Source of the DNA: a virus
Length of the DNA stretch: 64,000 nt
Virus record (IMG/VR): IMGVR_UViG_3300025930_000141
Location: 1-64,000 of that record
Reading direction: 5' to 3' (one strand)
A program made the position numbers and the translations under genes. A model generated the notes under the pieces. That model did no database searches. It was not told where the DNA came from and saw nothing but the letters and a program-made list of their open reading frames with translations. How positions within the stretch are numbered: position 1 is the stretch's first letter; the number at the start of each line of letters is the position of its first letter. Positions 25,811-51,887 of the stretch are shown one piece after another.

Positions 25811-26095
25811 ATCTTACCTCATGCATCCAGGGAACAATGTTATTAGCGGAGTATGGATTAAAGTATTCCAGTACCGGCCCGCACCATACACCCGGCTCGG
25901 CGTGACAGCGTGGACACTCTTTGGCTAATGCCTGTTCATGGTCACTCATAGCATTTCCACCTTGTCTACTGGGAAGCCCAGACGGTCCAGGGCATCCATG
26001 AATTCCTTAACGTCAGCCTCGGGCACGGTCCGGTGGACCTGAGCCTCAAAGGCCGGTATTGTCCAGTAAATTGCGTACATGATTATTCCTTCTTG

Positions 26096-26180
26096 CGGAG
26101 AGCAGAGTATTCGAAACCCAGACCTTTCGGTCCAACTCGGCTAGCAACCGGTTCCTGCGCGCCTGTCAGGTTTGCTCTCC
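26096..26180 (-). tRNA. tRNA-Ser(GCT)
   Basis: Loop TTGCTAG; long variable arm; G73. Confidence 0.85.
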
Positions 26181-30061: not shown

Positions 30062-30680
30062 CAGCGTAGTTTAGCAGCCCGACATACGCCATGGTCGTAC
30101 CCCTGAGTCACGTAAGGGGTGGGGGCGGTGACAGTCCCCGCGTTTAGTTGCCGGGAGAGGTAGGAGGAAGGTGGAAGGAGGTTAACCCCTCCCGGCAAGT
30201 TTTGTTACCGGCCCATCCCATCGCCACGTACAAGCGTAGGTCAATGGGCCGGTAAGTTAAATAAGGGTAGTGGCTTGCTTAAGACCACCGGAACACGGGC
30301 TAAGCGGCACCCTACCCTACTCCCACGGCACGATAGTTATTGTTTCAAACTACCAGGCATTCCACCCACGGCGGTGTTTTCGCGGATTATTCCATTCGAC
30401 CGTTGCTTCATATCCCCGGCCCTTCGGCTTATCGGGGGTAACTCCACACTCTCGTCTTGACCCTTAAATTCTATTTAGTTAAGTAGTAACCGCGCCGGGG
30501 ATTCGAACCCTGGTCAACTAGTATTGCCAATTCGCGGCATGTATGTGGTAGCAAGTTATCTCGTCTAAACCGAGGGAGCGGGTGCGCGTTGCGTTCGTGA
30601 CCTCGGGGTAGGTTCTCTTATGCTTGCTAATAACGAGGCGGCTCCTACGTTGTCGGGACCTCGTGCTTCCCTGATAGGGA
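30062..30680 (-). ncRNA. promoter-driven non-coding cassette of several structured RNA modules
   Basis: No credible ORF; closed stems at 30148-30198, 30205-30255, 30262-30466, 30489-30538 and 30549-30629, separated by AT-rich linkers. Confidence 0.6.
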
Positions 30681-37566: not shown

Positions 37567-37637
37567 AGCCCCTAGCCGGGATTGAGCCGACTTCTCCTGT
37601 TTACAAGGCAGGTGCATCACCTTAATGCTTTAGGGGC
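37567..37637 (-). tRNA. tRNA-Thr(TGT), atypical T loop
   Basis: Anticodon loop CTTGTAA; T loop CTCAATC. Confidence 0.8.
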
Positions 37638-37740: not shown

Positions 37741-37814
37741 AGCCGATACGGGGAATCGAACCCCGGCTATTCTACATTACGAAAGTAGTACCATACCATT
37801 TAGGAGTTATCGGC
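37741..37814 (-). tRNA. tRNA-Thr(CGT)
   Basis: Loop TTCGTAA; weak D stem. Confidence 0.8.
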
Positions 37815-39198: not shown

Positions 39199-39217
39199 TA
39201 ACTTTCCTTTCGTAGAG

Positions 39218-39289
39218 AGTCCCCAGCGGGACTTGAACCCGCGACCGGCAATTTAGGAAATTGCTGTTCTGCCACTGAACTATGGGGAC
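39218..39289 (-). tRNA. tRNA-Arg(CCT)
   Basis: GCAAT-TTCCTAA-ATTGC. Confidence 0.9.
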
Positions 39290-39290
39290 G

Positions 39291-39366
39291 TGCGCCAGAT
39301 GGGAGTCGAACCCACATGTATCCATTATACTTTCAACTGCTTCGGGGGCAGGGGTAATACTAGCGC
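39291..39366 (-). tRNA. rearranged tRNA-Arg(CCG)-like gene (D loop 3' of the anticodon arm)
   Basis: GCGCTAG-TA-T-TAC-CC-CTGC-CCCCGAA-GCAG-TTGAAA-GTA-TAATGG-ATACAT-T arm-CTGGCGC-A. Confidence 0.7.
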
Positions 39367-39367
39367 A

Positions 39368-39814
39368 TTATGGTGGAGGTATTTCAATACCCCGGTCTAC
39401 GTTATGTCTGTACTCAAGAAGTCGCATGTGATGATATGCCCAAAAGACCAATTGAATAATCGCGGGTATAATTTGGAACCAATACCCGTGTGTTGAGTAT
39501 ACCACGACAGCATAGAACCACACAAGGTAGCCGAGCAGCGGTCCAGCGCTAGAAATGGGCCTGTAGCGCATCAATAAATTCACGATGGACAGAACCACCG
39601 CTGCAATTGCTGCGACGCCCCAGAGGCTCACAGCGGGCACCAGGGCTATGTCTGTGGTCAACTGGTAGAGCACGCTGGCCTGCACCGACGCGGTGCTGGT
39701 GAAAAACACAAAGGCTATACCCATGTTCAGCGTATATGCCAACATAAGGTATAGCCAAAGAGGGAAGCGTTCACCCTCGCTTCGGTAGATTAATCTTGGC
39801 AAATACTTTCTCAT
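39368..39814 (-). CDS. 4-TM membrane protein
   Basis: Four hydrophobic helices; own upstream -10. Confidence 0.75.
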   Translation of the reverse strand: MRKYLPRLIYRSEGERFPLWLYLMLAYTLNMGIAFVFFTSTASVQASVLYQLTTDIALVPAVSLWGVAAIAAVVLSIVNLLMRYRPISSAGPLLGYLVWFYAVVVYSTHGYWFQIIPAIIQLVFWAYHHMRLLEYRHNVDRGIEIPPP

Positions 39815-39886
39815 GTACTGATTTTACCACACTGTCCACAAAAAGCATTGAGTCTGCTACTCTATCCCAAAAGAAGTTAATCATCG

Positions 39887-39958
39887 AGGCACTTACCGGA
39901 TTCGAACCGGTATAAAGTAGGGTTGCAATCTACTGGATAGCCATTCTCCCAAAGCGCC
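39887..39958 (-). tRNA. tRNA-Cys(GCA)
   Basis: Loop TTGCAAC; U73. Confidence 0.88.
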
Positions 39959-40236
39959 ATAGACCGGGCGGGCTGACTCACGAATGCAAGAAGTAGGGTT
40001 GTTGCTAGCACAGAGCCCACGGTACTTTCGGATAACCAGCCGGTACGCCGCACTATCACGTAGCGCCCGGTAAAGCCTATTTAATTTTAACGCCCAGTCT
40101 TTCGACGTTCTTATCGTTCTCTACACCGTCCTTACCGCGCTGACAGCGCGGCGAACAGTAAACTCTGTCTTCGACAATCCAAAGGTGAGTTGCAATCCTG
40201 CACTTGCATTTAGTACATTTCACATTGGGTTCATTT

Positions 40237-40470
40237 TTACGTGCCCTGTGGGCCACGCTTGCGAGCGCGTTGCCGCGCCTCGTATGGAGTCGGCTCCCCA
40301 CGGTCTCGGTATTGCTCGTTTACGAGCCACGCCTTATGGTTTGCCTCGATGTTTGCCTTTTTCCTGCGCTGTGCTGCTTCCCAGCACGCCTTACGCTTTG
40401 CTCTGCGGTTTACGTTCATCGCACGCTTCGGCAAGTTCTTGCGCAGTTTGGCGTCGTTTTGTCCAGCCAT
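40237..40470 (-). CDS. small basic protein
   Basis: SD GGGGGTG; Arg/Lys-rich. Confidence 0.6.
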   Translation of the reverse strand: MAGQNDAKLRKNLPKRAMNVNRRAKRKACWEAAQRRKKANIEANHKAWLVNEQYRDRGEPTPYEARQRARKRGPQGT

Positions 40471-40645
40471 GACTTTTAGTCACCCCCTTAAGGTTTACCT
40501 AATCGTCATGGCTTGCTCCTATGTTGTTCAAACTTGTCTCCTGTTATGGATATACCGGCCCCTACGGGTCCAACGCCACCCACCCTCGGTAGGACGAGGT
40601 TAAGCGTGAAGCGTTCGGTAGTGATAGCACTCCCGACCGGTATTG

Positions 40646-40719
40646 TGGAGGTAAAGGGATTTGAACCCTTGACTTCTAGTATGCCATACTAGCGTTCTAC
40701 CTGGCTGAACTATACCCCC
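40646..40719 (-). tRNA. tRNA-Ala(GGC)
   Basis: G3:U70; loop ATGGCAT. Confidence 0.92.
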
Positions 40720-40813
40720 AGGGCACCCTTTGTTAAAGCAGGTCTGGCGACTGCACCCCGCGCGCAGGGTCACGGCTTCTCGGCCCTTGTACTTTGGGTC
40801 TCATCCATCATTG

Positions 40814-40886
40814 TGGAGGATACCGGAATCGAACCGGTGACTTCTACCTTGCAAAAGTAGCACTCTACCTGCTGAGTTAATCCCCC
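40814..40886 (-). tRNA. tRNA-Ala(TGC)
   Basis: G3:U70; loop TTTGCAA. Confidence 0.92.
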
Positions 40887-40904
40887 AGGATTATTTAGTT
40901 AGCG

Positions 40905-40975
40905 TGGCGTACGAGAGATTTGAACTCTCAGAGTAGGGATTTACAGTCCCGCTCCCTCAACCAACGGTGTACGCC
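40905..40975 (-). tRNA. tRNA-Tyr(GTA), no long variable arm, weak D arm
   Basis: Loop CTGTAAA; intact acceptor and T arms. Confidence 0.75.
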
Positions 40976-40985
40976 GTGTGGTCCC

Positions 40986-41014
40986 ATTGTACAGGTTGGG
41001 ACCGTACCTGTCAA
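40986..41014 (-). promoter_or_regulatory. SigA-type promoter TTGACA-N17-TACAAT
   Basis: Directly upstream of tRNA-Tyr. Confidence 0.8.
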
Positions 41015-41289
41015 GCCTGTGTTATTGTGATTTGTAGGAAGTCGTTGGCGCTTCCCTCGACCGGCTTGTGGTCCTCGTTAAAGTGACCATTGATGTTTAC
41101 TACCCAATCATGGTCGGGCCAGTTACGACCAAAGACCATGGTTCTATCAAATAGGTCGTAAACCACTTCACTTGCTGCGTCGATTGCTCGTACCGCTGCC
41201 TCGTTGTCCTCGACATTTACCATGTCTTGGACCTCACCCGTGTGGCTGTCGCCAGTATTCTTTAATACTACCTTTGCTGAAAAACTCAT
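41011..41289 (-). CDS. hypothetical protein
   Basis: TAATG coupling to the lytic enzyme gene. Confidence 0.65.
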   Translation of the reverse strand: MSFSAKVVLKNTGDSHTGEVQDMVNVEDNEAAVRAIDAASEVVYDLFDRTMVFGRNWPDHDWVVNINGHFNEDHKPVEGSANDFLQITITQA

Positions 41290-42050
41290 TAGCCCGCCAA
41301 TACAGCGTCAATATAAGACCATACGTTGCGCGGTGTAGTCGTGCCCGCTGGTGTATAAAACTGTGGACGACCCTGGCTAATCCAACGGTCTGCTCCACCT
41401 AGGCCTAGATTATAAGACGCTACCGCGTCGCCTAGAACGCCATAACGCTGGAACGCTTGGTCATTACCCTTGCTGTTCTTGAAGTGTGTTAATGCGTTGT
41501 TCATGTAATTGGTTACAAAGTCGAATGCAATCTTTGGTCGGAACCGCTCGATTGCATCTAAGTCCGGGTGCGAAGGACCATTGATTTGTGCTAGTCCTAG
41601 GTCTTCCGGGTCCACGAAGCCTACCGCGCCAGCGTCCCATGAGGACTCGTGACGGATAATACCAGAAACAACAACCGGGGTAAGCGGTGGCTTACCGCTG
41701 GCCTCGACCTCTGAGATAAGGTCGGGGTACAGCAATAGGAAAGAACTGTCTTCCCCAATGCCGCCCCAAGGCGTTACGAAGTCCTTATGCTTGTTCTGGA
41801 ATGTTGTAACTGCATCGCTCGTGGCCTGGTCGAACTTACCAGTAACCTTAACCGTTCCCTTGCCAAGTCTACGGTTGAGTGCTCGTTGATATGCCTTAAC
41901 TGCATGATGAACAGCAAAGTTATCTTGATTTGTAGTTGGGTCTAGTTCACCAGACCCGAGATAGTAATACGGTCCAGGCTTGGTTGACTTATAAGCCTTG
42001 GTACCGCCTGCGCCGGAATTATTCCAAGCGCCTCTTCCATGAGTTGCCAT
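41289..42050 (-). CDS. peptidoglycan-binding + lytic transglycosylase protein (endolysin-like)
   Basis: VKAYQRAL..G.F...T..AV..FQ binding domain; HESSW, GLAQIN and ASYN.G SLT motifs. Confidence 0.85.
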   Translation of the reverse strand: MATHGRGAWNNSGAGGTKAYKSTKPGPYYYLGSGELDPTTNQDNFAVHHAVKAYQRALNRRLGKGTVKVTGKFDQATSDAVTTFQNKHKDFVTPWGGIGEDSSFLLLYPDLISEVEASGKPPLTPVVVSGIIRHESSWDAGAVGFVDPEDLGLAQINGPSHPDLDAIERFRPKIAFDFVTNYMNNALTHFKNSKGNDQAFQRYGVLGDAVASYNLGLGGADRWISQGRPQFYTPAGTTTPRNVWSYIDAVLAG

Positions 42051-42072
42051 AATATTATGTTCCCTTCGGGAG

Positions 42073-42142
42073 TGCTGATGCCGGGAATTGAACCCAGACC
42101 AAGTGGTTATGAGTCACTTCGGCTCGCCGTCGCCTCACCAGC
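42073..42142 (-). tRNA. tRNA(CAT), elongator Met or Ile2, compact 70 nt
   Basis: Loop CTCATAA; G1-C72. Confidence 0.75.
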
Positions 42143-42234
42143 AATGCTACAGTTCTTACTAACGCACCGCTCCGCTCCGCTGTAGCACCGTGCGGAATCC
42201 CATGCGAATGGGCTTAAGGTACCCTATCCCATTG

Positions 42235-42307
42235 TGCGGTAGACGGGACTCGGACCCGCAACTTCCACGTTGGCAACGTGACACTCTACCAATTGAGTTA
42301 CTACCAC
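42235..42307 (-). tRNA. tRNA-Gly(GCC)
   Basis: Loop TTGCCAA; T loop TCCGAGT; A73. Confidence 0.85.
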
Positions 42308-42380
42308 TGGTGGGGCTTGGTTCTTTTATTTATGCAGGTTAAGAAACACCCCGGCAATAAGCCCTGCGTTATCCGTACTT

Positions 42381-42435
42381 CGTCTTAAGCCGTTTCTGGA
42401 CCTTCACGAGTAAAGTTTCGAACCTTTACTGCTTG
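42381..42435 (-). repeat. T-loop hairpin element 3' of tRNA-Glu(TTC), copy 1
   Basis: CAAGC-AGTAAAG-GTTCGAAA-CTTTACT-CGTGAAG..CGGCTTAAGACG. Confidence 0.8.
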
Positions 42436-42511
42436 TGACGTGGACGGGAATCGAACCCGCAATGGCAAGAGATTGAAAGTCTCCGCTGCAACCGCCAGTG
42501 GACACCACGCC
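42436..42511 (-). tRNA. tRNA-Glu(TTC)
   Basis: Loop CTTTCAA; atypical D arm. Confidence 0.8.
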
Positions 42512-42582
42512 TGGTCCGAGGGTCAACACTTTGGATTAGACTGGAAAGTCCCTCGGGCGCTAAAACCAGTGTTACGGGGCCA

Positions 42583-42638
42583 CGTCTTAAGCCGCTACTA
42601 CCGTCTTCACGAACAAAGTTTCGAACCTTTGCTGCTTG
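42583..42638 (-). repeat. T-loop hairpin element 3' of tRNA-Glu(CTC), copy 2
   Basis: CAAGC-AGCAAAG-GTTCGAAA-CTTTGTT-CGTGAAG..CGGCTTAAGACG. Confidence 0.8.
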
Positions 42639-42712
42639 TAGCCCCTACGGGATTCGAACCCGTCATCACACAGATTGAGAGTCTGGTATCCTTGCCACAA
42701 GACCCAGAGGCC
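42639..42712 (-). tRNA. tRNA-Glu(CTC)
   Basis: Loop CTCTCAA. Confidence 0.85.
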
Positions 42713-42723
42713 GTATGTCACCA

Positions 42724-42752
42724 ATTATACAGGCTGGTGACCCACCTGTCAA
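42724..42752 (-). promoter_or_regulatory. SigA-type promoter TTGACA-N17-TATAAT
   Basis: Perfect consensus upstream of tRNA-Glu. Confidence 0.88.
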
Positions 42753-42757
42753 GCCTG

Positions 42758-43162
42758 TCAGGGGACGCTGTTGCCGTAGCACTTATCAGGGTCACACCAC
42801 AACTTATCAAATACCCGCCACGGTGCCCCAGCACTAAACTGACGATACGTCAGGATAACGTTTACGTGAGGCGGCGCGCCGTTGTATTGGACATTCTTGA
42901 ATGCGTGTCCGTTGTTATTCCAAGAAGCAATCTTTTCACCAGAGCAGTCACAAATGTTTTCTGCTTGAGTTTGGGTTGCTCCACTGGTGGAGTCGTCTCC
43001 CGGACACAACTGGCCTGCCTGAGCATCAATCTCAACAGTACACAAACCCGTGTACTCGCTCTTGGTCCAGGTACCCACAAAAGCGTGGGCCGGGGAGACG
43101 GTTGAAAGCATTAGCGTCAGACCAGACAACAGCGTGGCGGTCAATAATAGCATTTTCTTCAT
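42758..43162 (-). CDS. secreted Cys-rich protein, paralog of 36816-37142
   Basis: Signal ending PAHA; T.SEY..GATQ.....ICDCSG..W....KLWC.PD.C. Confidence 0.75.
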   Translation of the reverse strand: MKKMLLLTATLLSGLTLMLSTVSPAHAFVGTWTKSEYTGLCTVEIDAQAGQLCPGDDSTSGATQTQAENICDCSGEKIASWNNNGHAFKNVQYNGAPPHVNVILTYRQFSAGAPWRVFDKLWCDPDKCYGNSVP

Positions 43163-43172
43163 ATTATTCCTT

Positions 43173-43712
43173 TCAGGTCAACCTGGCACGAACTACGGTG
43201 CGATAGTCTGTGTGAACAAACCTCGACGCACATGTAATAAGTGTTAATGTTTCGTGCCTGTTGTTTAATACAGATACATTGGTGTAGTATACGTTGAACT
43301 TGTTTGTAACTTTAAACGTGTATTGGGTTCCACATTTTTCAATGACTACCCGGTCGCCGGGTGTCAATTCTGGGAGCCGCGCAAAGGGCTCTCCGTGCGT
43401 TACAACGTGTGCAGTGAGCGCATAGTTCCCCCTGCCCACCGGGCCGGTATGTGGGAAGTGCCCCACGACCCCTGAGTTTAGCACCTTTTCACTGACGCCA
43501 TTCTCAATCGGCATTACGTAATGCCCCCAGGATGGAACCCGAATTAGTGCGCCGGGGCACTTGTGCAGGGCTACGCCCTGTCTAATCTTTGAAACCTCAG
43601 CCTTTTGATGTTGTTCAATGGCTACCGGGTCAGACCCGGTATGGGGCATTCCGAAGAATACAACCATACCGAGCCCGACCACAATCAGTGTCAGTGCGAA
43701 TAACTTACGCAC
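43173..43712 (-). CDS. sortase
   Basis: N-terminal TM; GNYALTAH (His), TLTLITC (Cys), R..V.A (Arg); GTG at 43712 overlaps the substrate's 3' end. Confidence 0.92.
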   Translation of the reverse strand: MRKLFALTLIVVGLGMVVFFGMPHTGSDPVAIEQHQKAEVSKIRQGVALHKCPGALIRVPSWGHYVMPIENGVSEKVLNSGVVGHFPHTGPVGRGNYALTAHVVTHGEPFARLPELTPGDRVVIEKCGTQYTFKVTNKFNVYYTNVSVLNNRHETLTLITCASRFVHTDYRTVVRARLT

Positions 43713-44655
43713 GCTTACGAGACAATAGCAGGAGACCGGAGCCAGCAATTAGCAGACCCAGACCAACAAACAAAGACGTGTTGGCGGTATCTGACAAACC
43801 AGCATTCGGTAGGGACCGTGCTACAGGTGGTGCAAGTGCAGCGGGCGGCTTATGCCCACTTGGGTTATGCGGGGTATTTACCGGAGGCTTGGGCGACGGG
43901 TTATCTACCGGTGGCGTAGGCGTCGGTGTAGGAGTCGGTGTGTCGGTCGTGCAGGTCACACCGTCCGTCCAAGCATAGAAGGTAACCTCGTCAGAGGCTT
44001 CCTGGTCAGTTACAGTTTCATCAAATGCTTCCTGGTCAACGATAACTTCGTCATATGCCTCCTGGTCTACAACCGTTTCATCATATGCATCTTGGCCCGG
44101 AGTAATCAATTCTCCGTGCTCGCGGTGGAACCAAGAAGAGTTACCGCTATTTCCATTACTGGAATTAAACGTGCCGTAAGTATCTTGGTCAGGACCGCCG
44201 TTTTCGTGAGGCCCCTGCCATGTGCCACGCTCATCATTGGGGAATTCAGGGGTGTAATCTTGTGGTCCATGAGTATAATTCGGGGACCAATTCCACCACA
44301 GGTCGGGGCCATAAACAGCCGGTACCGCGTCGTGATGGATAACATGTGTTACCGCGTCGTGATGTACTGTATGCGTCACAGCGTCGTGATGTACAACGTG
44401 GGTGACTGCTGGGTGATGAACTGTCAAAACCCACGAGCGTGTAGTATCACACTCGTTGTCGGTGACAAAGGTAGAAACCTCGTCCTCGATTGCACCTTGC
44501 GGAACGTCGTTAGGGCTTGCAACCACAATTGGGTTACTAGCAGACTCACCGGGGACACCGGTTGCGTTGGCGGTGCTGAGCATTGCGCCCGCACCCAAAA
44601 CAATACCGGCTACCATAAGTACGGTCGCCAGTATTGTCGATAAAATCTTTGTCAT
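43705..44655 (-). CDS. LPxTG-type cell-wall-anchored surface protein
   Basis: Signal peptide, His and acidic repeats, PT linker, LPNAG + TM + RKRA tail. Confidence 0.88.
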   Translation of the reverse strand: MTKILSTILATVLMVAGIVLGAGAMLSTANATGVPGESASNPIVVASPNDVPQGAIEDEVSTFVTDNECDTTRSWVLTVHHPAVTHVVHHDAVTHTVHHDAVTHVIHHDAVPAVYGPDLWWNWSPNYTHGPQDYTPEFPNDERGTWQGPHENGGPDQDTYGTFNSSNGNSGNSSWFHREHGELITPGQDAYDETVVDQEAYDEVIVDQEAFDETVTDQEASDEVTFYAWTDGVTCTTDTPTPTPTPTPPVDNPSPKPPVNTPHNPSGHKPPAALAPPVARSLPNAGLSDTANTSLFVGLGLLIAGSGLLLLSRKRA

Positions 44656-44687
44656 TTATTTACTTTCTGTTGTGTGCCGTTAAAGCG

Positions 44688-44760
44688 TGACCCCTCTCGG
44701 ACTTGAACCGAGGACTCTTGGTTTAAAAGACCAGCACTCTACCAACTGAGTTAAGGGGTC
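44688..44760 (-). tRNA. tRNA-Lys(TTT)
   Basis: Loop CTTTTAA. Confidence 0.92.
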
Positions 44761-44909
44761 CTAGCGAGCCGGTCGGCTCGCGTCTTTTCTAAATGATGCT
44801 CGTGACATAGCAACTGCCGCCCAGATTGGCAATCCAATCATTCCGGCGACGAGTGTAACGCTCTTTCATGTAGTTATTCATTTCTACATTATAATTTGCG
44901 TATCCCATG

Positions 44910-44982
44910 TACCCCTACCGAGGCTTGAACTCGGAACTTTCAGTTTAAGAGACTGCTACTCTACCAATTGAGTTATAGGGGC
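44910..44982 (-). tRNA. tRNA-Lys(CTT)
   Basis: Loop CTCTTAA. Confidence 0.92.
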
Positions 44983-45086
44983 AAAGATTAAAGGCTTTGC
45001 AAGGTGACTTTCTGGTTTAACCGCCAGAGCACCTTGGCGGGGAACAGCCGCCTGGTCCTTGTTCAAGGGAACATATTTTGCCTAAG

Positions 45087-45169
45087 TGACCATGGTGGGG
45101 TTCGAACCCACAGTACCCATTCGGGACAGGTTAAGGGCCTGTTAGACTAGCCAATTGTCAAACACGGTC
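45087..45169 (-). tRNA. atypical tRNA(CTT) with C33 and a long variable arm
   Basis: ACAGG-CCCTTAA-CCTGT, then CCC-GAAT-GGG variable hairpin. Confidence 0.75.
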
Positions 45170-45170
45170 A

Positions 45171-45246
45171 TGGGGTGACTAACGGGAATCGAACCCGCAT
45201 ATACTTGCACCACAAGCAAGCGCATTACCAGTCTGCCATAGCCACC
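45171..45246 (-). tRNA. tRNA-His(GTG)
   Basis: G-1:C73; encoded CCA; loop TTGTGGT. Confidence 0.92.
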
Positions 45247-45271
45247 ATGGCCCGCCGAAGCGGGCATTTAA

Positions 45272-45343
45272 TTAGAACCTACTTGCAATAGCAAGAATGA
45301 TTACCACAATAAGGATAATCAATAGGATACCCCAAATACTCAC
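45272..45343 (-). CDS. 23-aa hydrophobic micropeptide (MSIWGILLIILIVVIILAIASRF)
   Basis: SD GAGG, upstream TTGACA promoter, single TM. Confidence 0.55.
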   Translation of the reverse strand: MSIWGILLIILIVVIILAIASRF

Positions 45344-45532
45344 GTACCTCACCACCTACCCTCAAGGGTAACAGGTGAGCGTTCAGTTGTCAAGCCGATG
45401 TTTTGGGCTTTCACAACCACAAGCATATACCCCATAAGTGTCAGACCACATGAGGTCGGGACATTTATCGTGGTCGTCGTCTAGGCAAAATACACAATGG
45501 GGCATTTCACCTTCATATAATTCATACATACG

Positions 45533-45605
45533 CGCCCCCGGCAGGATTCGAACCCGCGACCACTAGAGTAGAAAACTAGCACTCTGTCCACTGAGTTACG
45601 AGGGC
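45533..45605 (-). tRNA. tRNA-Arg(TCT)
   Basis: Loop TTTCTAC; A20. Confidence 0.9.
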
Positions 45606-45967
45606 ATTACCAGCCAGCCCACTCTGCGCCCCCCCATTTGACCCAATCAATGTTTCCAGCCATTATGTCATCAACACAAGGCTTACATGCATCATAGGGA
45701 ACGCGCTCGTTTTGTTTGTCTACCATTTCCAGTACACCGTCCGCTGGACGGGAATTGCAAATGTTACACCACTTAATTGCTCCTGGCATCATTTTCTTAT
45801 TTGTCTGTATTCGACTTCTGTTACTTCTACCGCTCCCTCGGTGCCGGTGGCGAATACGTCTCGCAAGGCGTCCAGAGCGTCGTCGTCGTCAAATGCTTCA
45901 ATCTCGCACCAAACGGAAACCTTAAACTTGTACTTTTCCATGCTTCAATTGTAGCATAGATTGGGTC

Positions 45968-46342
45968 TTAGAGAAGTTCTCGACGCAAATCGTGGAACTT
46001 GTCTGCGTCACCGTTGGCAATGGCGGTAAGCATGTCAATGGCCTGCTCGTTATTTGTGTCGTAAAACAACGACGACCATTCGTACCGGTCCAGACCAAGA
46101 TAATCTCCCGCAGCGTAGTCAACGGCACTGAGAACAATTTGACCTTCCTGCTGCCATTGAACCGTACCGGCTACGCACATGGTCGTGTCACACAGATTTA
46201 CCTGACCAGTGAAGTGTCGCAAATCTTCTACAGATGCGTCTTCCCAACTAACGAAATTGTTCTGGTCGTGACGCTCTGGGTACATACGAAGGTAATCGAG
46301 AGCCTGCTGGGCAACGCGCTTGGTGTTTTCTGTTACGTCCAT
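45968..46342 (-). CDS. hypothetical protein (H.Q..F..CDT.MCVAG)
   Basis: SD AGGAG; motif loosely like family B. Confidence 0.75.
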   Translation of the reverse strand: MDVTENTKRVAQQALDYLRMYPERHDQNNFVSWEDASVEDLRHFTGQVNLCDTTMCVAGTVQWQQEGQIVLSAVDYAAGDYLGLDRYEWSSLFYDTNNEQAIDMLTAIANGDADKFHDLRRELL

Positions 46343-46429
46343 TACTTACTCCTAGATAGGCCGAACCAACGTGGTCCGTGTTTGTAACAATACTTTTCTG
46401 GATATGCGATAAAGATGTTAATGTTCATG

Positions 46430-46502
46430 TACCCTCGACAGGATTCGAACCTGCGACCTCTTCGTCCGTAGCGAAGCGTTCTATCCACTGAACTACGAGG
46501 GC
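46430..46502 (-). tRNA. tRNA-Arg(ACG)
   Basis: CTTCG-CTACGGA-CGAAG. Confidence 0.92.
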
Positions 46503-46506
46503 ATGT

Positions 46507-46612
46507 ATTCGGATATGGTACGAAGTCGATAGGACACCAGTCCCAAATAGGCAGGAATCGAACCTGGCCTCGCTAACTTTGGCAACGATAAACGACTATC
46601 ATCGACCCGAAT
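46507..46612 (-). ncRNA. Y RNA-like gene 6 (T-arm payload)
   Basis: AUUCGGGUCGAUGAUAGUCGUUUAUC ... CAGG-UUCGAUU-CCUG ... CGACUUCGUACCAUAUCCGAAU. Confidence 0.8.
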
Positions 46613-46623
46613 TAAGTATTAAA

Positions 46624-46740
46624 TTAGCAGGAATGGCAAGGCCAGTTTGTGTCTACCCTGGCCTCAGATGGAGCGGCGACAGCGCCGACCAGTCCAAGTG
46701 CCATTACAGCGGCGGCAAGCGCGCCAGCAATTCTCTTCAT
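46624..46740 (-). CDS. 38-aa secreted pre-peptide (signal + RVDTNWPCHSC)
   Basis: SD GGGAGG; signal peptide ending PSEA. Confidence 0.75.
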   Translation of the reverse strand: MKRIAGALAAAVMALGLVGAVAAPSEARVDTNWPCHSC

Positions 46741-46761
46741 TGCAACCTCCCGTGATAAGGT

Positions 46762-46867
46762 TGGGCATAATTGTAATCGGAATTTAAGTCTACTTTGCGC
46801 TTGGAGGCGCACGTGCTATTTACACCAATAGGGAAGTCCCCATAGATAACCGATATACTTCGGCCCA
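46762..46867 (-). ncRNA. Y RNA-like gene 7 (D-arm + anticodon-arm payload)
   Basis: UGGGCCGAAGUAUAUCGGUUAUC ... CGAUUACAAUUAUGCCCA. Confidence 0.78.
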
Positions 46868-46868
46868 G

Positions 46869-46939
46869 AGCGGGTACGGAGAATCGAACTCCGGTAATCT
46901 GATTGGAAGTCAGGAGCACTACCATTGTGCTATACCCGC
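46869..46939 (-). tRNA. tRNA-Gly(TCC)
   Basis: Loop CTTCCAA; U73. Confidence 0.92.
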
Positions 46940-46940
46940 G

Positions 46941-47012
46941 TAGCGCCACTGGGACTTGGACCCAGTTTTCTCGGGCTTCAACCGAGCGCATATCCATACA
47001 TGCTCTGACGCC
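46941..47012 (-). tRNA. tRNA-Phe(GAA)
   Basis: CTCGG-TTGAAGC-CCGAG; T loop TCCAAGT. Confidence 0.82.
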
Positions 47013-47061
47013 TTGGCTGTACCCGGCCCCACATTTGCTCGATGAGGCCGGGTACAATGCA

Positions 47062-47090
47062 ATTGTAACAGGTCAGACTGAGCGTGTCAA
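47062..47090 (-). promoter_or_regulatory. SigA-type promoter TTGACA-N17-TACAAT
   Basis: Upstream of the Phe-Gly-Y7-peptide-Y6-Arg unit. Confidence 0.8.
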
Positions 47091-47304
47091 GTCTACGACC
47101 CACTCTTCTAACTTGCTGTCAATGTAATAAAGAACTTGGTCCTTTATCTCAAATTTACCGTCACGATGGTCGTACAGGTCGCCCTGTCTGACACCCCAAT
47201 AAACCGGGACCCTCACAAAAGTGCTCCAATTACTAGTGCACACAAGAGCAATAGCACAAACAGGAATAATCCGAAGTCTGCTAGAAACTCAATTATGTTG
47301 TCTA

Positions 47305-48300
47305 TCATGCCTTGATAAGCAGTCTCGTGTTTGGCATCAGGTTACGGTTAATCGAGGTTGACTGAACGAAAATGTCGTAGTCCGGGTTGTAATCGGGCTT
47401 TACCCGTACCGTGTGGCTTGGTAGGCCAATAAGGTCACGAGCATTCTGACCACCATAAGCCTTACCGGTAGACTTCTCTACTACGATAATAGACTTCTGT
47501 GGCTGAATGTTTTCAGTCTTTGTCAACTGGTAGTAACCCATACCCTTGGAGTAGGCGTAACCCAGGCGACGAACAAAGTCGTCAATGCGGGTCTTGGAGT
47601 CTACGTTGTAGAACTCATAACCATCCAAAGGCTGTAGGTTCTTAACCGTTGCCTTGTTTACCGCATCTGCGCCTGTCGAGAAGACGGCGCGCGAGCCACG
47701 TACACCGCTGGCACGGTTTGTCATGAAGTTGTCTGTGGCCGTACGGATGGTGCTGACGGCCTCAACAATTCCAGTGGCACTAGTGGTGTCCCAAATTGCT
47801 ACGGAGCCTGCATCGGCCCCCAGACGGCTCACATAGGCCTGTCCTGACCTGTCAGGCACCAGCCAACCGATGGTCCAGTTGTCTGCTGCGCGGTTTAGCA
47901 TGTTTGCCAGGTCGTGAGCGCTGTGACGCGAGCGGTTTTCCTGTCCGTCGGTTAGGACGAATGTCAGGAATGCGTGGTCACCATAAAGTTGGCTGGTCGT
48001 AGCCAAGTCCTGCTGGCTCTTGATGGTTGCGTCAATAAGGGCGGTAAGTCCTCGGACGTTGTAAAGGTCACTAATCGACGGTAGACGCATTACGTCCATA
48101 TCGAAGATTAGGCACTCTACGTTATCGTGGAACAGATATACGCTGACTCGCGTCTCTTGTTGCAATTCTTCGCTTCTCAGAGCGAGGTAACGAATCTGTT
48201 CGTCGGCTACCTGGATTAACTTGCTTCTGTGGCTCGTCATGCTGGAACTACCGTCCAGCACGAGCGCCACGTGATTAATTAGTCGTTGTGCTTTGTGCAT
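47305..48300 (-). CDS. von Willebrand factor A domain protein
   Basis: MIDAS DGSSSM, TALIDA, LTDGQEN; extra C-terminal domain. Confidence 0.88.
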   Translation of the reverse strand: MHKAQRLINHVALVLDGSSSMTSHRSKLIQVADEQIRYLALRSEELQQETRVSVYLFHDNVECLIFDMDVMRLPSISDLYNVRGLTALIDATIKSQQDLATTSQLYGDHAFLTFVLTDGQENRSRHSAHDLANMLNRAADNWTIGWLVPDRSGQAYVSRLGADAGSVAIWDTTSATGIVEAVSTIRTATDNFMTNRASGVRGSRAVFSTGADAVNKATVKNLQPLDGYEFYNVDSKTRIDDFVRRLGYAYSKGMGYYQLTKTENIQPQKSIIVVEKSTGKAYGGQNARDLIGLPSHTVRVKPDYNPDYDIFVQSTSINRNLMPNTRLLIKA

Positions 48301-48392
48301 TAATTTCTCCTATGGCCCCTTCGACAAGAGGAACATTACTAGAACGAGCGCCACTGTCAGCAGATATGCGACAACAGCAATTTCCGTGCCGC

Positions 48393-48614
48393 TCAAAACT
48401 TGAGCGCAACACCAACAATTACTGCTAGTACACACAGAATGGGGAAGAACGGAATGAAACTGGCTAGAAACAGAAACAGTAACGAACCGCCACCCGCAAC
48501 CATAAGGCCGGTGCCGACCCCTGACTTTGATGACTTCTCGACTTCATAAGAGTCTCGCTTGGTAATTGACATTGCTTTCCTAACTATCGAAGTTGCATTG
48601 TTTTGTACACTCAT
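48393..48614 (-). CDS. small membrane protein
   Basis: Two C-terminal TMs; leaderless after TATAAT. Confidence 0.6.
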   Translation of the reverse strand: MSVQNNATSIVRKAMSITKRDSYEVEKSSKSGVGTGLMVAGGGSLLFLFLASFIPFFPILCVLAVIVGVALKF

Positions 48615-48661
48615 TATACCAGAAGAGGGGCACTTTTTTCAAGTGCCCCTCTCTGGATTTG

Positions 48662-50260
48662 TCAGACTCGACCAGCGAAGAAGTTAGCCATTACGCTAGG
48701 CGTAGATGAGTCGAAACCTACTACGTCGAGCATACCGGCGTCCTTCGGGTCTGCCACGGTGAAGCCTGTTGAGACCATACCTACAGAAACTAGGCGGGCG
48801 TTGCGGCCACGAGAGTCGCGGTACTGCTTAAGTGCGACATTTGGCTTAACGCTACCGGCCCACGTCTCGTTGTCGGTGTAAACCGCGAAAGCATCAACAT
48901 CAATACCCTTGCTCTTGGCGTAAACCATTGGCTGGGCAATGTCGGTGCCACCGAACGACAAACCGCTGACCTTACGGAGCACGGTTTCGAACGAATCGGC
49001 GTCACCGATGTTCAGGGTTACCAACGAAGTCGTGAAGGCGTTAACCACAACGTAAGGCTCGGTGCGCACGGTGACCATAGCCATGAGCGCAGCGGCCTCT
49101 CGACAGTTAAGACCAACGAGGCCAGCAGGGGCGTACATGGTCATAGAACCTGAAACGTCAAGGCTTACCATGGTTGGAACACCGGCAGGCTCGACGGTCT
49201 TGAAGGACTCATAGAATCCAGACTCAAGAGCGCCCAAAACCTTAGCGTTCATACCACGGTGCTGCTTACCGAGGATACCGCGAGCGTTGGCGTACTGGAC
49301 TGGGTGTACCCGGCCCTTTACGATACGCTCGCCGTCAGCAAGAGCAATAGCCACGTCGCCTGCGAACTTAACGTCCTTGAAAGCACCAATCTCTTCGAAC
49401 CGCTTGAGGTTACGAATGAGAGCGGTCTGACCTAGAGCGCCGTTGTAGAAAAGCGTCTTCCATACGTCAGGGTCCTTAAGGAACTGGGTAGGAATGGTTT
49501 CCCAAGGAAGAGCCTTGTACGTGTTAAGAACGCGCACAACTTCCTTGGCGCTTGTGGTGCGCTGCATGGCCTTGAAACCGTCGATAATTTCCGGCGTGTT
49601 TTCAATCTCGGCACGGTCGGCCTTGATAGGCCCGCCAAGAACAAAGTCACCAATGCTAACGTTTACGCCCTTAGGGTGAGCAAGACGGAATACGTCGCGG
49701 TGCGTCCAACCGTCGCGCTGGCGGTACTTGACTACCTGATAAGCCAACTGGTTGTCGTCCTTAGACGTGTACCAGTCTGCAAGGCTACCGCGCTTTGCGC
49801 GACCAAGGCCACCCAAGTCCTTAAGGTACTGTGCGTACTCGAAAAGGTGGGTACCGGTGCGGGCAACCTTAGGGACAAGCGCCCGAACGGCAGCCTTGTT
49901 CTCAGCGTTGTGCATGAGCAAGGCTAGCACGAAAAGGCTAGGGCTGTTCTTAGGTGCGCGGTTTTCGTCAGCGACAGCGCGGAGCGTGTCGATAACCAAC
50001 TGCTCGTCAGACTTGATAAGTGCGAGGACGAACTTAGCGTTGTCCTTGGTCAACTTACGCTCTGAGACGTAGTAGGTACCGCCGTCCGTACCAAGAATCA
50101 GGAATCGCTCAAGGCGAACCTGCGGCGTAACACCGAATACAAAACCTCCGGCGTTGTTACGTACCTCGTCGGTACGTCCAGGGGTACGCTTGTTCTGAGG
50201 CGTACCGTTGTAACGAGTGTTTGCGATTTCACCCGTTAAGTTCTTTAATGCGTTCTTCAT
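48662..50260 (-). CDS. rsr: Ro60 / TROVE-domain RNA-binding protein (Rsr)
   Basis: NNAGGFVF..RLERFLILGTDGGTYY, KYRQRDGWTHRD..RLAHP, LPWE, ALIRNL, RVHP; vWA DVSGSM, GGTD, YTDNETW, DAGMLDVVGFD. Confidence 0.96.
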   Translation of the reverse strand: MKNALKNLTGEIANTRYNGTPQNKRTPGRTDEVRNNAGGFVFGVTPQVRLERFLILGTDGGTYYVSERKLTKDNAKFVLALIKSDEQLVIDTLRAVADENRAPKNSPSLFVLALLMHNAENKAAVRALVPKVARTGTHLFEYAQYLKDLGGLGRAKRGSLADWYTSKDDNQLAYQVVKYRQRDGWTHRDVFRLAHPKGVNVSIGDFVLGGPIKADRAEIENTPEIIDGFKAMQRTTSAKEVVRVLNTYKALPWETIPTQFLKDPDVWKTLFYNGALGQTALIRNLKRFEEIGAFKDVKFAGDVAIALADGERIVKGRVHPVQYANARGILGKQHRGMNAKVLGALESGFYESFKTVEPAGVPTMVSLDVSGSMTMYAPAGLVGLNCREAAALMAMVTVRTEPYVVVNAFTTSLVTLNIGDADSFETVLRKVSGLSFGGTDIAQPMVYAKSKGIDVDAFAVYTDNETWAGSVKPNVALKQYRDSRGRNARLVSVGMVSTGFTVADPKDAGMLDVVGFDSSTPSVMANFFAGRV

Positions 50261-50307
50261 TTTGTTTCCTTTCGTCCCGGTCGTTTCGGGAATGTTATAT
50301 TAACGAC

Positions 50308-50397
50308 TGGCGGCTACTGTAGGATTCGAACCCACGGAAGGTTTTACCCTTCGCTTGTTTTCAAGACAAGTGCAATCGCCCACTCTGCCAAGTAGCC
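50308..50397 (-). tRNA. tRNA-Ser(TGA)
   Basis: Long variable arm; G73; encoded CCA. Confidence 0.93.
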
Positions 50398-50401
50398 GAG
50401 T

Positions 50402-50544
50402 ATGCTGGATATAAGTGCGAAATCGGGGTTTAACGGCGGCTTTACCATTTGCCTATACCCCACATGAATTGGGTGGGGCAACAGGATTCGAACCTGCATT
50501 CACCGGCTCCAAAGGCGATAACCGATATTCAATCGACCCAGCAT
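50402..50544 (-). ncRNA. Y RNA gene 1 (YrlA class; contains a complete permuted tRNA-Gln(UUG))
   Basis: Ro stem AUGCUGGGUCGA../..AUAUCCAGCAU; T arm, loop-closed acceptor stem, D arm; 142 nt upstream of the ro60 start. Confidence 0.9.
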
Positions 50545-50552
50545 TAAGTTGT

Positions 50553-50670
50553 GTACCGAATATGTTATTGCAACGGAGTTTTTACTATATAGCATACAGC
50601 ACACCGACAGGGCCGGTGTATTGGATTTGAACCAATGATTTCCGATAACCGTTAACATTCGACTCGGTAT
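50553..50670 (-). ncRNA. Y RNA gene 2 (YrlA-like)
   Basis: AUACCGAGUCGA..CGGUUAUC; AUUGG-UUCAAAU-CCAAU; ACACCGGC-CCU-GUCGGUGU; ..CAUAUUCGGUAC. Confidence 0.87.
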
Positions 50671-50672
50671 AG

Positions 50673-50746
50673 TAGCGGAGACGGGATTTGAACCCGCGTT
50701 GTCAGGATTATGAGCCCTGTGTTTAACCGAACTAAACTACTCCGCG
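50673..50746 (-). tRNA. tRNA-fMet(CAT)
   Basis: C1xU72 mismatch; GGG in the anticodon stem. Confidence 0.9.
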
Positions 50747-50748
50747 AG

Positions 50749-50821
50749 TGGGCCGTATAGGATTCGAACCTATGACTTCTTCGGTGTAAACGAAGCACTC
50801 TAACCACTGAGTTAACAGCCC
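50749..50821 (-). tRNA. tRNA-Val(TAC)
   Basis: CTTCG-TTTACAC-CGAAG. Confidence 0.92.
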
Positions 50822-50824
50822 ATG

Positions 50825-50937
50825 GTACCGGACATAAGGTTGAAATCGAGCGTTTTGACTGGGGACCGCCCCATGCACGAGTCGAACGTGCCCGACCTTA
50901 TATTCAGTAAGATAACCGATTTCATTCGGCCCGGTAT
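50825..50937 (-). ncRNA. Y RNA-like gene 3 (T arm + short acceptor-like hairpin)
   Basis: AUACCGGGCCGAAUGAAAUCGGUUAUC; GCACG-UUCGACU-CGUGC; ..CGAUUUCAACCUUAUGUCCGGUAC. Confidence 0.85.
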
Positions 50938-50945
50938 TTAGTTTT

Positions 50946-51021
50946 GAGAGGATATGTGGTCGGCATCGTGTTTATGGTTAATTGCAATATAATTAGATAA
51001 ACGATACCGTTCGACCCTCTT
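50946..51021 (-). ncRNA. Y RNA-like gene 4 (minimal)
   Basis: AAGAGGGUCGAACGGUAUCGUUUAUC ... CGAUGCCGACCACAUAUCCUCUC. Confidence 0.8.
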
Positions 51022-51023
51022 TG

Positions 51024-51098
51024 CGACCTTGAAGGGATTTGAACCCTCGGCTTCTAGCGTGACGGGCTAGCACTCTAACCAGACTGAGTTACAAGGCC
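51024..51098 (-). tRNA. tRNA-Asp(GTC), C33
   Basis: CTAGC-CCGTCAC-GCTAG; G73. Confidence 0.9.
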
Positions 51099-51109
51099 AT
51101 GTTAATTTA

Positions 51110-51175
51110 GAGCGAATATGTGGTTGACCAACGGGGGTTCATTGTTGTAAGATAACCGTCAATCTTCGACTCGCT
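51110..51175 (-). ncRNA. Y RNA-like gene 5 (minimal)
   Basis: AGCGAGUCGAAGAUUGACGGUUAUC ... CGUUGGUCAACCACAUAUUCGCUC. Confidence 0.8.
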
Positions 51176-51255
51176 TGGTAGGGCAGACAGGAGTTGAACC
51201 TGCGTGTCACCAGTTACCCTTTCTACTCGTTATCAGCGAGAGGGGATACTGCCCT
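51176..51255 (-). tRNA. rearranged tRNA-Ile(GAT)-like gene (D loop 3' of the anticodon arm)
   Basis: AGGGCAG-TA-T-CCC-CT-CTCG-CTGATAA-CGAG-TAGAAA-GGG-TAACTGG-TGACAC-T arm-CTGCCCT-ACCA. Confidence 0.75.
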
Positions 51256-51471: not shown

Positions 51472-51813
51472 CTATGTAATTTCTATGACAGGAATCCCCA
51501 TCGCCCTATAGTGTAGCACGACCTCAGGGTCGTTGTCAAGCGCCTCGACCACGCTGTAGACCTGTCGAATTTTCTCAACTAGTTCAACCTTGTAAAGTGG
51601 ATTCTTTTTCCGGTCTGGTGAGAACGCCATACCTCGGAGTGGAATCACATCTTTAAGAGTGTTATAGATGAAATCTTCATTTGTCTCCTGCATACGGTAA
51701 GTTACTACATATACCGGCAGCCCGCGTTCATTCAAGTAATCCACAGTGGGTTGAATAAGACCGTAGTATTTCTTGAATAATACACCGTCGAAATCGCTGA
51801 CTATTATGTCCAT
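51472..51813 (-). CDS. HAD-family phosphatase (PNKP 3'-phosphatase-like)
   Basis: DFDGV motif I, VTYR motif II, K, DND motif IV. Confidence 0.75.
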   Translation of the reverse strand: MDIIVSDFDGVLFKKYYGLIQPTVDYLNERGLPVYVVTYRMQETNEDFIYNTLKDVIPLRGMAFSPDRKKNPLYKVELVEKIRQVYSVVEALDNDPEVVLHYRAMGIPVIEIT

Positions 51814-51887
51814 GGCACGGGTGGAGGGATTCGAACCCATCGCACTAGAGTTTTGGAGGCTCTGTGACTCAACCAACGCTCACCCGC
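51813..51887 (-). tRNA. tRNA-Trp(CCA)
   Basis: Loop CTCCAAA; G73; encoded CCA; weak D arm. Confidence 0.78.

Follow-up and report, generated by a model that had tools for sequence, protein, structure and literature searches.

A soil phage represented by IMG/VR record IMGVR_UViG_3300025930_000141 carries two unusual tRNA genes within its tRNA island. The stretch analyzed here, positions 1-64,000 of that record (the window), is part of an 80.7-kb contig that amounts to ~63% of the genome, and every tRNA gene in the window lies on the minus strand. The original prediction described a tRNA-Arg(CCG) gene at 39291-39366 (gene A) and a tRNA-Ile(GAU) gene at 51176-51255 (gene B) with normal acceptor and T arms and no D arm, and the sequence matches that description exactly. 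The two genes are laid out as follows.

39291-39366, minus strand: gene A, rewired tRNA-Arg(CCG), 76 nt, anticodon CCG, discriminator A73 followed by C
39360-39366, minus strand: gene A acceptor 5' strand GCGCUAG, pairing with 39292-39298 (7/7, one G.U)
39354-39356, minus strand: gene A enclosing helix 5' strand UAC, pairing with GUA at 39328-39330 and putatively in the role of positions 23-25
39337-39351, minus strand: gene A anticodon hairpin CUGC-CCCCGAA-GCAG, anticodon CCG at 39343-39345
39316-39336, minus strand: gene A linker UUGAAA, helix 3' strand GUA and D-loop-like segment UAAUGGAUACAU
39299-39315, minus strand: gene A T arm GUGGG-UUCGACU-CCCAU, stem 5/5
51176-51255, minus strand: gene B, rewired tRNA-Ile(GAU), 77 nt plus encoded CCA (51176-51178), A73 at 51179
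51249-51255, minus strand: gene B acceptor 5' strand AGGGCAG, pairing with 51180-51186 (7/7)
51243-51245, minus strand: gene B enclosing helix 5' strand CCC, pairing with GGG at 51217-51219
51226-51240, minus strand: gene B anticodon hairpin CUCG-CUGAUAA-CGAG, anticodon GAU at 51232-51234
51204-51225, minus strand: gene B linker UAGAAA, helix 3' strand GGG and D-loop-like segment UAACUGGUGACAC
51187-51203, minus strand: gene B T arm GCAGG-UUCAACU-CCUGU, stem 5/5

Read 5' to 3', gene A runs GCGCUAG-UAU-UAC-CC-CUGC-[CCCCGAA]-GCAG-UUGAAA-GUA-UAAUGGAUACAU-T arm-CUGGCGC-A and gene B runs AGGGCAG-UAU-CCC-CU-CUCG-[CUGAUAA]-CGAG-UAGAAA-GGG-UAACUGGUGACAC-T arm-CUGCCCU-A-CCA. In both, the acceptor strand is followed by UAU (U8-A9-U), the 5' strand of the enclosing helix, C-Y, the anticodon hairpin, a U-W-GAAA linker, the 3' strand of the enclosing helix, a UA-R..GG strand, and the T arm. 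The anticodon stems consist of four Watson-Crick pairs plus a closing U.U or C.U, and UAA(C)UGG with ~6 further bases stands between the enclosing helix and the canonical T arm. A14, A15, G18G19, A20, and a Y48-like U can be assigned in the D-loop-like segment of gene A, as can A14, A15, G18G19, and U20 in that of gene B. The gene B anticodon loop, CUGAUAA, has 7 nt, U33, and a purine at 37. RNAfold, the Rfam alignment, and RNAalifold place no D hairpin in the interval from position 9 to position 26, and the Rfam tRNA alignment fits both genes only with the D arm deleted. The motif shared by the two genes occurs twice in the window against 0.02 occurrences expected by chance.

tRNA genes in the window were called with ARAGORN and the Rfam tRNA model RF00005 (threshold 29 bits). 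ARAGORN calls neither gene, while RF00005 scores gene A at 24.8 bits, below threshold, and gene B at 31.1 bits, above it. ARAGORN and the Rfam model find no other GAU or CCG tRNA in the 80.7-kb contig, so genes A and B are, as had been claimed, the only credible Ile(GAU) and Arg(CCG) genes there. The accompanying view that the tRNA set is otherwise complete is slightly overstated: no Trp tRNA turned up and the Ser(GCU) gene is doubtful on a contig holding ~63% of the genome. This phage uses AUU plus AUC at 44 per 1000 codons and CGG at 11. Contigs from four other rhizosphere DNA runs span the region with no listed difference within either gene, and one independent contig lies on gene B without any difference; this agreement among independent DNA runs makes an assembly artefact unlikely. 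Among the RNA sequencing runs, none is listed as containing this phage. Gene B has the A73 and encoded CCA ascribed to it. Most tRNA genes of this phage, gene A included, encode the discriminator and a single C rather than the full CCA, the exceptions being gene B, tRNA-Ser, and perhaps tRNA-His. A canonical tRNA-Arg(CCU) gene (39217-39289) sits downstream of gene A with 1 nt between them.

Genes A and B belong to a structural class of phage tRNAs that is real, conserved, and nearly absent from annotation. BLAST relatives occur in ~45 Streptomyces phages of Stanwilliamsviridae and also in Microbacterium phages, Rhodococcus phages, and crAss-like phages, and the matched stretches are nearly all unannotated in the GenBank records. 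A scan of IMG/VR with the motif, leaving the anticodon loop and both helix strands unconstrained, returned at least 118 contigs and, after filtering, at least 82 distinct full-length members at 80 viral loci; family counts given below (n = 82) are among the IMG/VR matches listed. The members have the canonical tRNA length of 76-78 nt. R1, a covariance model built from the 82-member set, separates core members (78-97 bits) from the window's canonical tRNAs (25 bits or less), and scores gene A at 80.5 bits (E 4e-21) and gene B at 90.2 bits (E 6e-24). Diverged relatives, among them a gene at 25951-26029 of Felix O1, score 31-59 bits with R1 and keep the segment order with different linkers.

The original prediction held that standard scanners would likely call such genes pseudogenes. 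Scanners do fail, but the genes are missed outright rather than called pseudogenes, and ARAGORN recovers 0 of 82 members. In a collection of cellular genomes, seven true members were found among the 117 motif matches listed, all seven on contigs of metagenome-assembled genomes; four of the six loci inspected with ARAGORN sit in dense, phage-like tRNA arrays. Streptomyces phage Mildred21 has three core members and one variant, and its rewired gene at 91367-91442 carries the GenBank label tRNA-Phe(gaa), although its anticodon in the family frame is UCG, i.e., Arg(UCG). In phage Coruscant, a rewired Ile gene (73025-73101) is overlapped by the annotation of an FtsK-like coding sequence, whose start may have been set too early.

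The secondary structure of the family is a three-way junction of acceptor, T arm, and a long arm in which a 3-bp helix encloses the anticodon hairpin. Among viral motif matches picked solely by T arm and acceptor stem, 97/97 also show full pairing of the enclosing helix (3/3) and of the anticodon stem (4/4). Covariation statistics were taken on the 82-sequence alignment with kinship among members ignored; there, 98.2% of cells are paired, compared with 64.9% after shuffling and 35-47% with slid partners, and the covariation score is 0.86 against 0.21. The enclosing helix, whose covariation had been proposed from genes A and B, is paired in 100% of members through 14 different pair combinations, which supplies the homologs with compensatory changes that had been set as a test of the prediction. 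Without guidance, RNAalifold gives the same three-way junction.

The strand from enclosing helix to T arm is also constrained. Its consensus, U-A14-R15-(N)NN-G18-G19-N20-N-A21-C-A-Y48, resembles a D loop, and its UA, GG, and ACA are nearly invariant. The third base of the strand and the base before the T stem covary in the manner of the R15-Y48 Levitt pair and form a 15:48-type pair (A-U in 56 members, G-C in 17, G-U in 2, other in 7); each of the GAU, UAU, and CAU groups shows its own switch between A-U and G-C (Fisher p = 2.5e-14, kinship ignored). GG is present in 80/82 members, the T loop conforms to UUCRA, and the anticodon loop reads C32-U33-NNN-A37 in 80/82. The idea of a distinct fold class that keeps the elements of the D/T elbow is thus supported by the family itself, by helix covariation, by the 15:48-type pair, by GG together with the T loop, and by the isotype bases.

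Across the family, diverged members included, eight anticodons occur, all of them Ile-type (GAU, UAU, CAU) or Arg (ACG, UCU, CCU, UCG, CCG). Together, they cover every Ile codon and every Arg codon box. The loci surveyed were fetched through the rewired family's own motif, which biases the isotype sample; within these motif-fetched loci, neither R1 nor an isotype-agnostic descriptor (102 matches in 1.18 Mb) finds any other isotype.

Identity bases follow the anticodon closely. Position "20" is A in every Arg member that keeps GG (25/27; the other two have no GG) and U in all Ile and CAU members. The strongest mutual information outside the helices links base 35 to the base after GG, as C35-A (26 members) and A35-U (51 members). 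The discriminator is A in 55/55 Ile and CAU members and G, A, or U, never C, in Arg members, a pattern that agrees with the published identity table (PMC9976931). A20 and C35 form the main identity set for bacterial ArgRS, and the Ile set includes U20, A35, and A73 (PMC9976931). Gene A bears the family's Arg marks (GG-A, C35, A73) and gene B its Ile marks (GG-U, A35, A73). CAU members show C4-G69, an Ile determinant, in 10/13 cases and U4-A69, associated with Met, in 2/13, which is suggestive, and only that, of lysidine-type tRNA-Ile2 rather than tRNA-Met. From these couplings we infer one scaffold with swapped identity; Ile and Arg probably share it because going from Ile (NAU) to Arg (NCU) takes only A35 to C35 and U20 to A20.

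Rewired genes sit within phage tRNA arrays of up to 33 ARAGORN tRNAs per locus. Considering non-CAU genes in loci with at least five ARAGORN tRNAs, the fetched locus contains no canonical gene of the same anticodon in 37 of 40 cases. Rewired genes usually fill the Ile or Arg slot of an array.

Genes A and B are probably working elongator tRNAs for Arg and Ile, gene A reading CGG and gene B reading AUU and AUC, of a phage-specific structural class in which the core is permuted and the L-shape is kept. More generally, the sequence evidence strongly suggests that the rewired class functions in translation. In the proposed fold, the 3-bp helix with its flanking U.U would replace the D stem and stack on the anticodon stem. 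Its 5' strand would take the place of positions 22-25, leading into position 26/27, and its 3' strand that of positions 10-13, leading into A14, such that segment 10-21 would in effect be shifted from the 5' side of the anticodon arm to behind the variable-like linker (U-W-GAAA). The rearrangement would create three new joints, from 9 to 22, 48 to 10, and 21 to 49. In the structure of yeast tRNA-Phe, the residues at each of these joints neighbour each other in the tRNA core. Since the joints would connect core neighbours, the contacts U8-A14, R15-Y48, and G18G19 with the T loop, and with them the L-shape, could persist. Host ArgRS and IleRS would charge the rewired tRNAs through their usual elements, and what RNase P, the CCA-adding enzyme, EF-Tu, and the ribosome encounter would be an ordinary acceptor/T minihelix and anticodon loop.

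Several observations weigh against this interpretation. The covariation counts ignore relatedness among members. The internal loop (C-Y opposite U-W-GAAA) is conserved across the family, and because it does not vary its structure is not resolvable. The three-dimensional mapping of the permuted core is deduced from sequence logic only. Gene A, the sole CCG member among the family members listed, has C at position 33 instead of the near-universal U, a feature of 2/82 members, and its enclosing helix is A-U-rich; C-C also replaces C-U 5' of its anticodon stem. Gene A may be a weaker or decaying member of the family. Finally, Streptomyces phages such as Mildred21 and Stanimal carry canonical and rewired tRNA-Ile(GAU) together, so a gap is not in every case what the rewired copy is needed to fill.

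The same coexistence would also fit rewired genes that encode tRNA mimics or decoys outside translation, whether as bait for a host tRNA-targeting nuclease, synthetase, or modification enzyme or as a Y-RNA-like partner of Ro60. As bait, the RNA would retain the acceptor/T minihelix together with an anticodon loop of Ile or Arg type. The restriction to two amino-acid identities fits such a role, as do the Ro60 homologue and PNKP-like protein encoded in this phage's tRNA island and a weak YrlA match (23.3 bits) overlapping gene A. A decoy is nevertheless improbable: the class has eight anticodons covering every Ile codon and every Arg box, its synthetase identity bases (A20/C35, A73) are coupled to the anticodon, and in 37/40 non-CAU cases in larger arrays the rewired gene is the sole carrier of its anticodon in the fetched locus. 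As for a Y RNA, the YrlA match overlaps gene A and the next tRNA and falls far under the threshold of 69, the genes have no counterpart of YrlA's long Ro-binding closing stem, and a better Y-RNA candidate adjoins the Ro60 gene. With YrlA scores of 23 bits or less, identity as a Y RNA was rejected.

Slightly less probable again is that these are functional tRNAs of the D-armless type, in which the enclosing helix only extends the anticodon arm, with the UA-R..GG strand serving as a flexible connector that rebuilds no canonical core. The secondary structure is formally a three-way junction with no D hairpin, and mitochondrial D-armless tRNAs do translate with flexible connectors (PMC7609411). 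The connector in the rewired class, however, is constrained, with nearly invariant UA, GG, and ACA; the base at its third position covaries with the one preceding the T stem in the manner of R15-Y48, the base after GG follows amino-acid identity, the T loop retains the UUCRA consensus required for the elbow, and overall length is canonical at 76-78 nt. Decayed tRNA pseudogenes or recombination scars, such as homing-endonuclease debris, would account for rejection by scanners, for the C33 of gene A, and for the HNH endonuclease gene adjoining one Mildred21 copy. This account is highly improbable, as compensatory changes have preserved the architecture in over 100 contigs from phages of several host phyla, and covariation effectively refutes it. 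An HNH link was also considered for the open reading frame (ORF) that abuts gene A (39368-39814), which has no Pfam or PHROG match and is unrelated to the Mildred21 HNH protein.

The rewired class is distinct from other departures from the textbook tRNA gene. Circularly permuted and split tRNA genes of Cyanidioschyzon merolae and Nanoarchaeum also have a non-textbook segment order, and processing restores the cloverleaf. In the phage genes the permutation is internal, the acceptor ends are normal, no processing signals were seen, and the altered order would persist in the mature RNA. Compared with canonical Ile and Arg tRNAs (RF00005), the class shares the 7-bp acceptor, the 5-bp T stem with its UUCRA loop, the 7-nt anticodon loop (with U33 and A37 in 80/82 members, gene A having C33), the length of 76-78 nt, an isotype-dependent D-loop sequence (GGAUA for Arg, GGUUA for many of the Ile members), the identity bases A20/C35 for Arg and A73/U20 for Ile, and the location in phage tRNA arrays. 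It differs in having a three-way rather than four-way junction, with a D-stem-like helix around the anticodon arm and the D-loop motif 3' of that helix.

D-armless tRNAs of metazoan mitochondria, including mt-tRNA-Ser(AGY) and nematode mt-tRNA-Ser(UCU), likewise lack a D hairpin, form a three-way junction, and have a longer anticodon-side helix, and show that translation can use such tRNAs (PMC7609411). Whereas the mitochondrial forms are short, have lost the D-loop/T-loop contact motifs, and depend on a translation system that co-evolved with them, the phage class retains full length, GG, a canonical T loop, and the 15:48-type pair, and would need ordinary bacterial machinery. Allo-tRNAs with 8/4 or 9/3 acceptor/T branches are non-canonical tRNAs that likewise came from mining genomic and metagenomic sequence, in some cases that of phages; they alter helix lengths within cloverleaf connectivity, whereas the phage class keeps 7/5 and alters connectivity (PMC5389517). 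YrlA, a bacterial Y RNA (RF02553), resembles the class in its tRNA-like T arm and D-loop-like elements and is tied to Ro60, a protein that this phage encodes, but it has a Ro-binding closing stem and neither an anticodon loop nor an aminoacyl acceptor end.

No description of a rewired phage tRNA class was found in the literature searched. A 2020 review of non-canonical tRNAs leaves phages unmentioned and treats D-armless tRNAs as known only from mitochondria (PMC7609411). A 2023 survey of viral structured RNAs lists a motif that sometimes overlaps tRNA-Arg calls (PMC10690425); any link to the rewired class is conjectural.

The tRNA island has several further features. The Ro60 homologue (TROVE and Ro60 vWA domains, E 1e-57) is encoded inside it at 48662-50260 on the minus strand. 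Beside it, the structured stretch at 50402-50525 (minus strand) resembles YrlA weakly (18 bits, E 0.25 with a search space of 291 nt) and combines a tRNA-like T arm with a long closing stem, making it a candidate phage Y RNA. Immediately upstream of tRNA-Pro and gene B, a small ORF at 51472-51876 (minus strand) matches phrog_415 (1e-10) and, weakly, Pfam HAD_PNKP; the PNKP-family match hints at tRNA repair functions in the island. Genes for a sortase (43173-43748), an LPXTG-anchor protein (43705-44655), and an SLT/peptidoglycan-binding lysin (41289-42050), all on the minus strand, lie among the tRNAs and fit a Gram-positive (actinobacterial) host.

Four more genes missed by ARAGORN match the Rfam tRNA model (40905-40975, 42436-42511, 37567-37637, and 37741-37814, all on the minus strand). 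They comprise a 71-nt Tyr(GUA) that lacks the long variable arm (31.2 bits), a Glu(UUC) whose 3-bp D stem is preceded by four additional bases (31.9 bits), and Thr(UGU) and Thr(CGU) with anticodon stems that close with mismatches. An 84-nt "tRNA-Lys(CUU)" called by ARAGORN at 45086-45169 (minus strand) combines a long variable arm with the loop CCCUUAA, in which position 33 is C as in gene A. Three tRNA-like stretches on the minus strand are called by neither scanner: 26096-26180, with a 7/7 acceptor, a GCU loop, and a variable-arm hairpin, may be Ser(GCU), and 30488-30590 and 46543-46659 have good T arms only.

To our knowledge, the cloverleaf has been regarded as universal outside organelles. 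The rewired genes could be the first natural non-cloverleaf tRNAs to work with ordinary bacterial translation, and the permuted core could hide Ile and Arg tRNAs from a reader of the D arm or variable pocket, such as a host defence nuclease or the phage's own tRNA-destroying nuclease, while synthetases, EF-Tu, and the ribosome still accept them. This combined proposal is tentative and on balance unlikely, and evasion of host nucleases or modification checks, the purpose put forward in the original prediction, is speculation. The practical consequence for phage genomics is that tRNA sets are systematically under-counted, given ARAGORN's recovery of 0/82 members, near-nil annotation, and one gene miscalled as tRNA-Phe, which distorts analyses of codon usage and of tRNAs versus defence. 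The rewired scaffold may serve orthogonal tRNA engineering, and the class offers a clean test of the core contacts needed by ArgRS, IleRS, TilS, TadA, and the ribosome. If the proposed reading is true, a large and conserved class of phage tRNAs with different strand connectivity and canonical tertiary marks would demonstrate a second topology from which the L-shape can arise.

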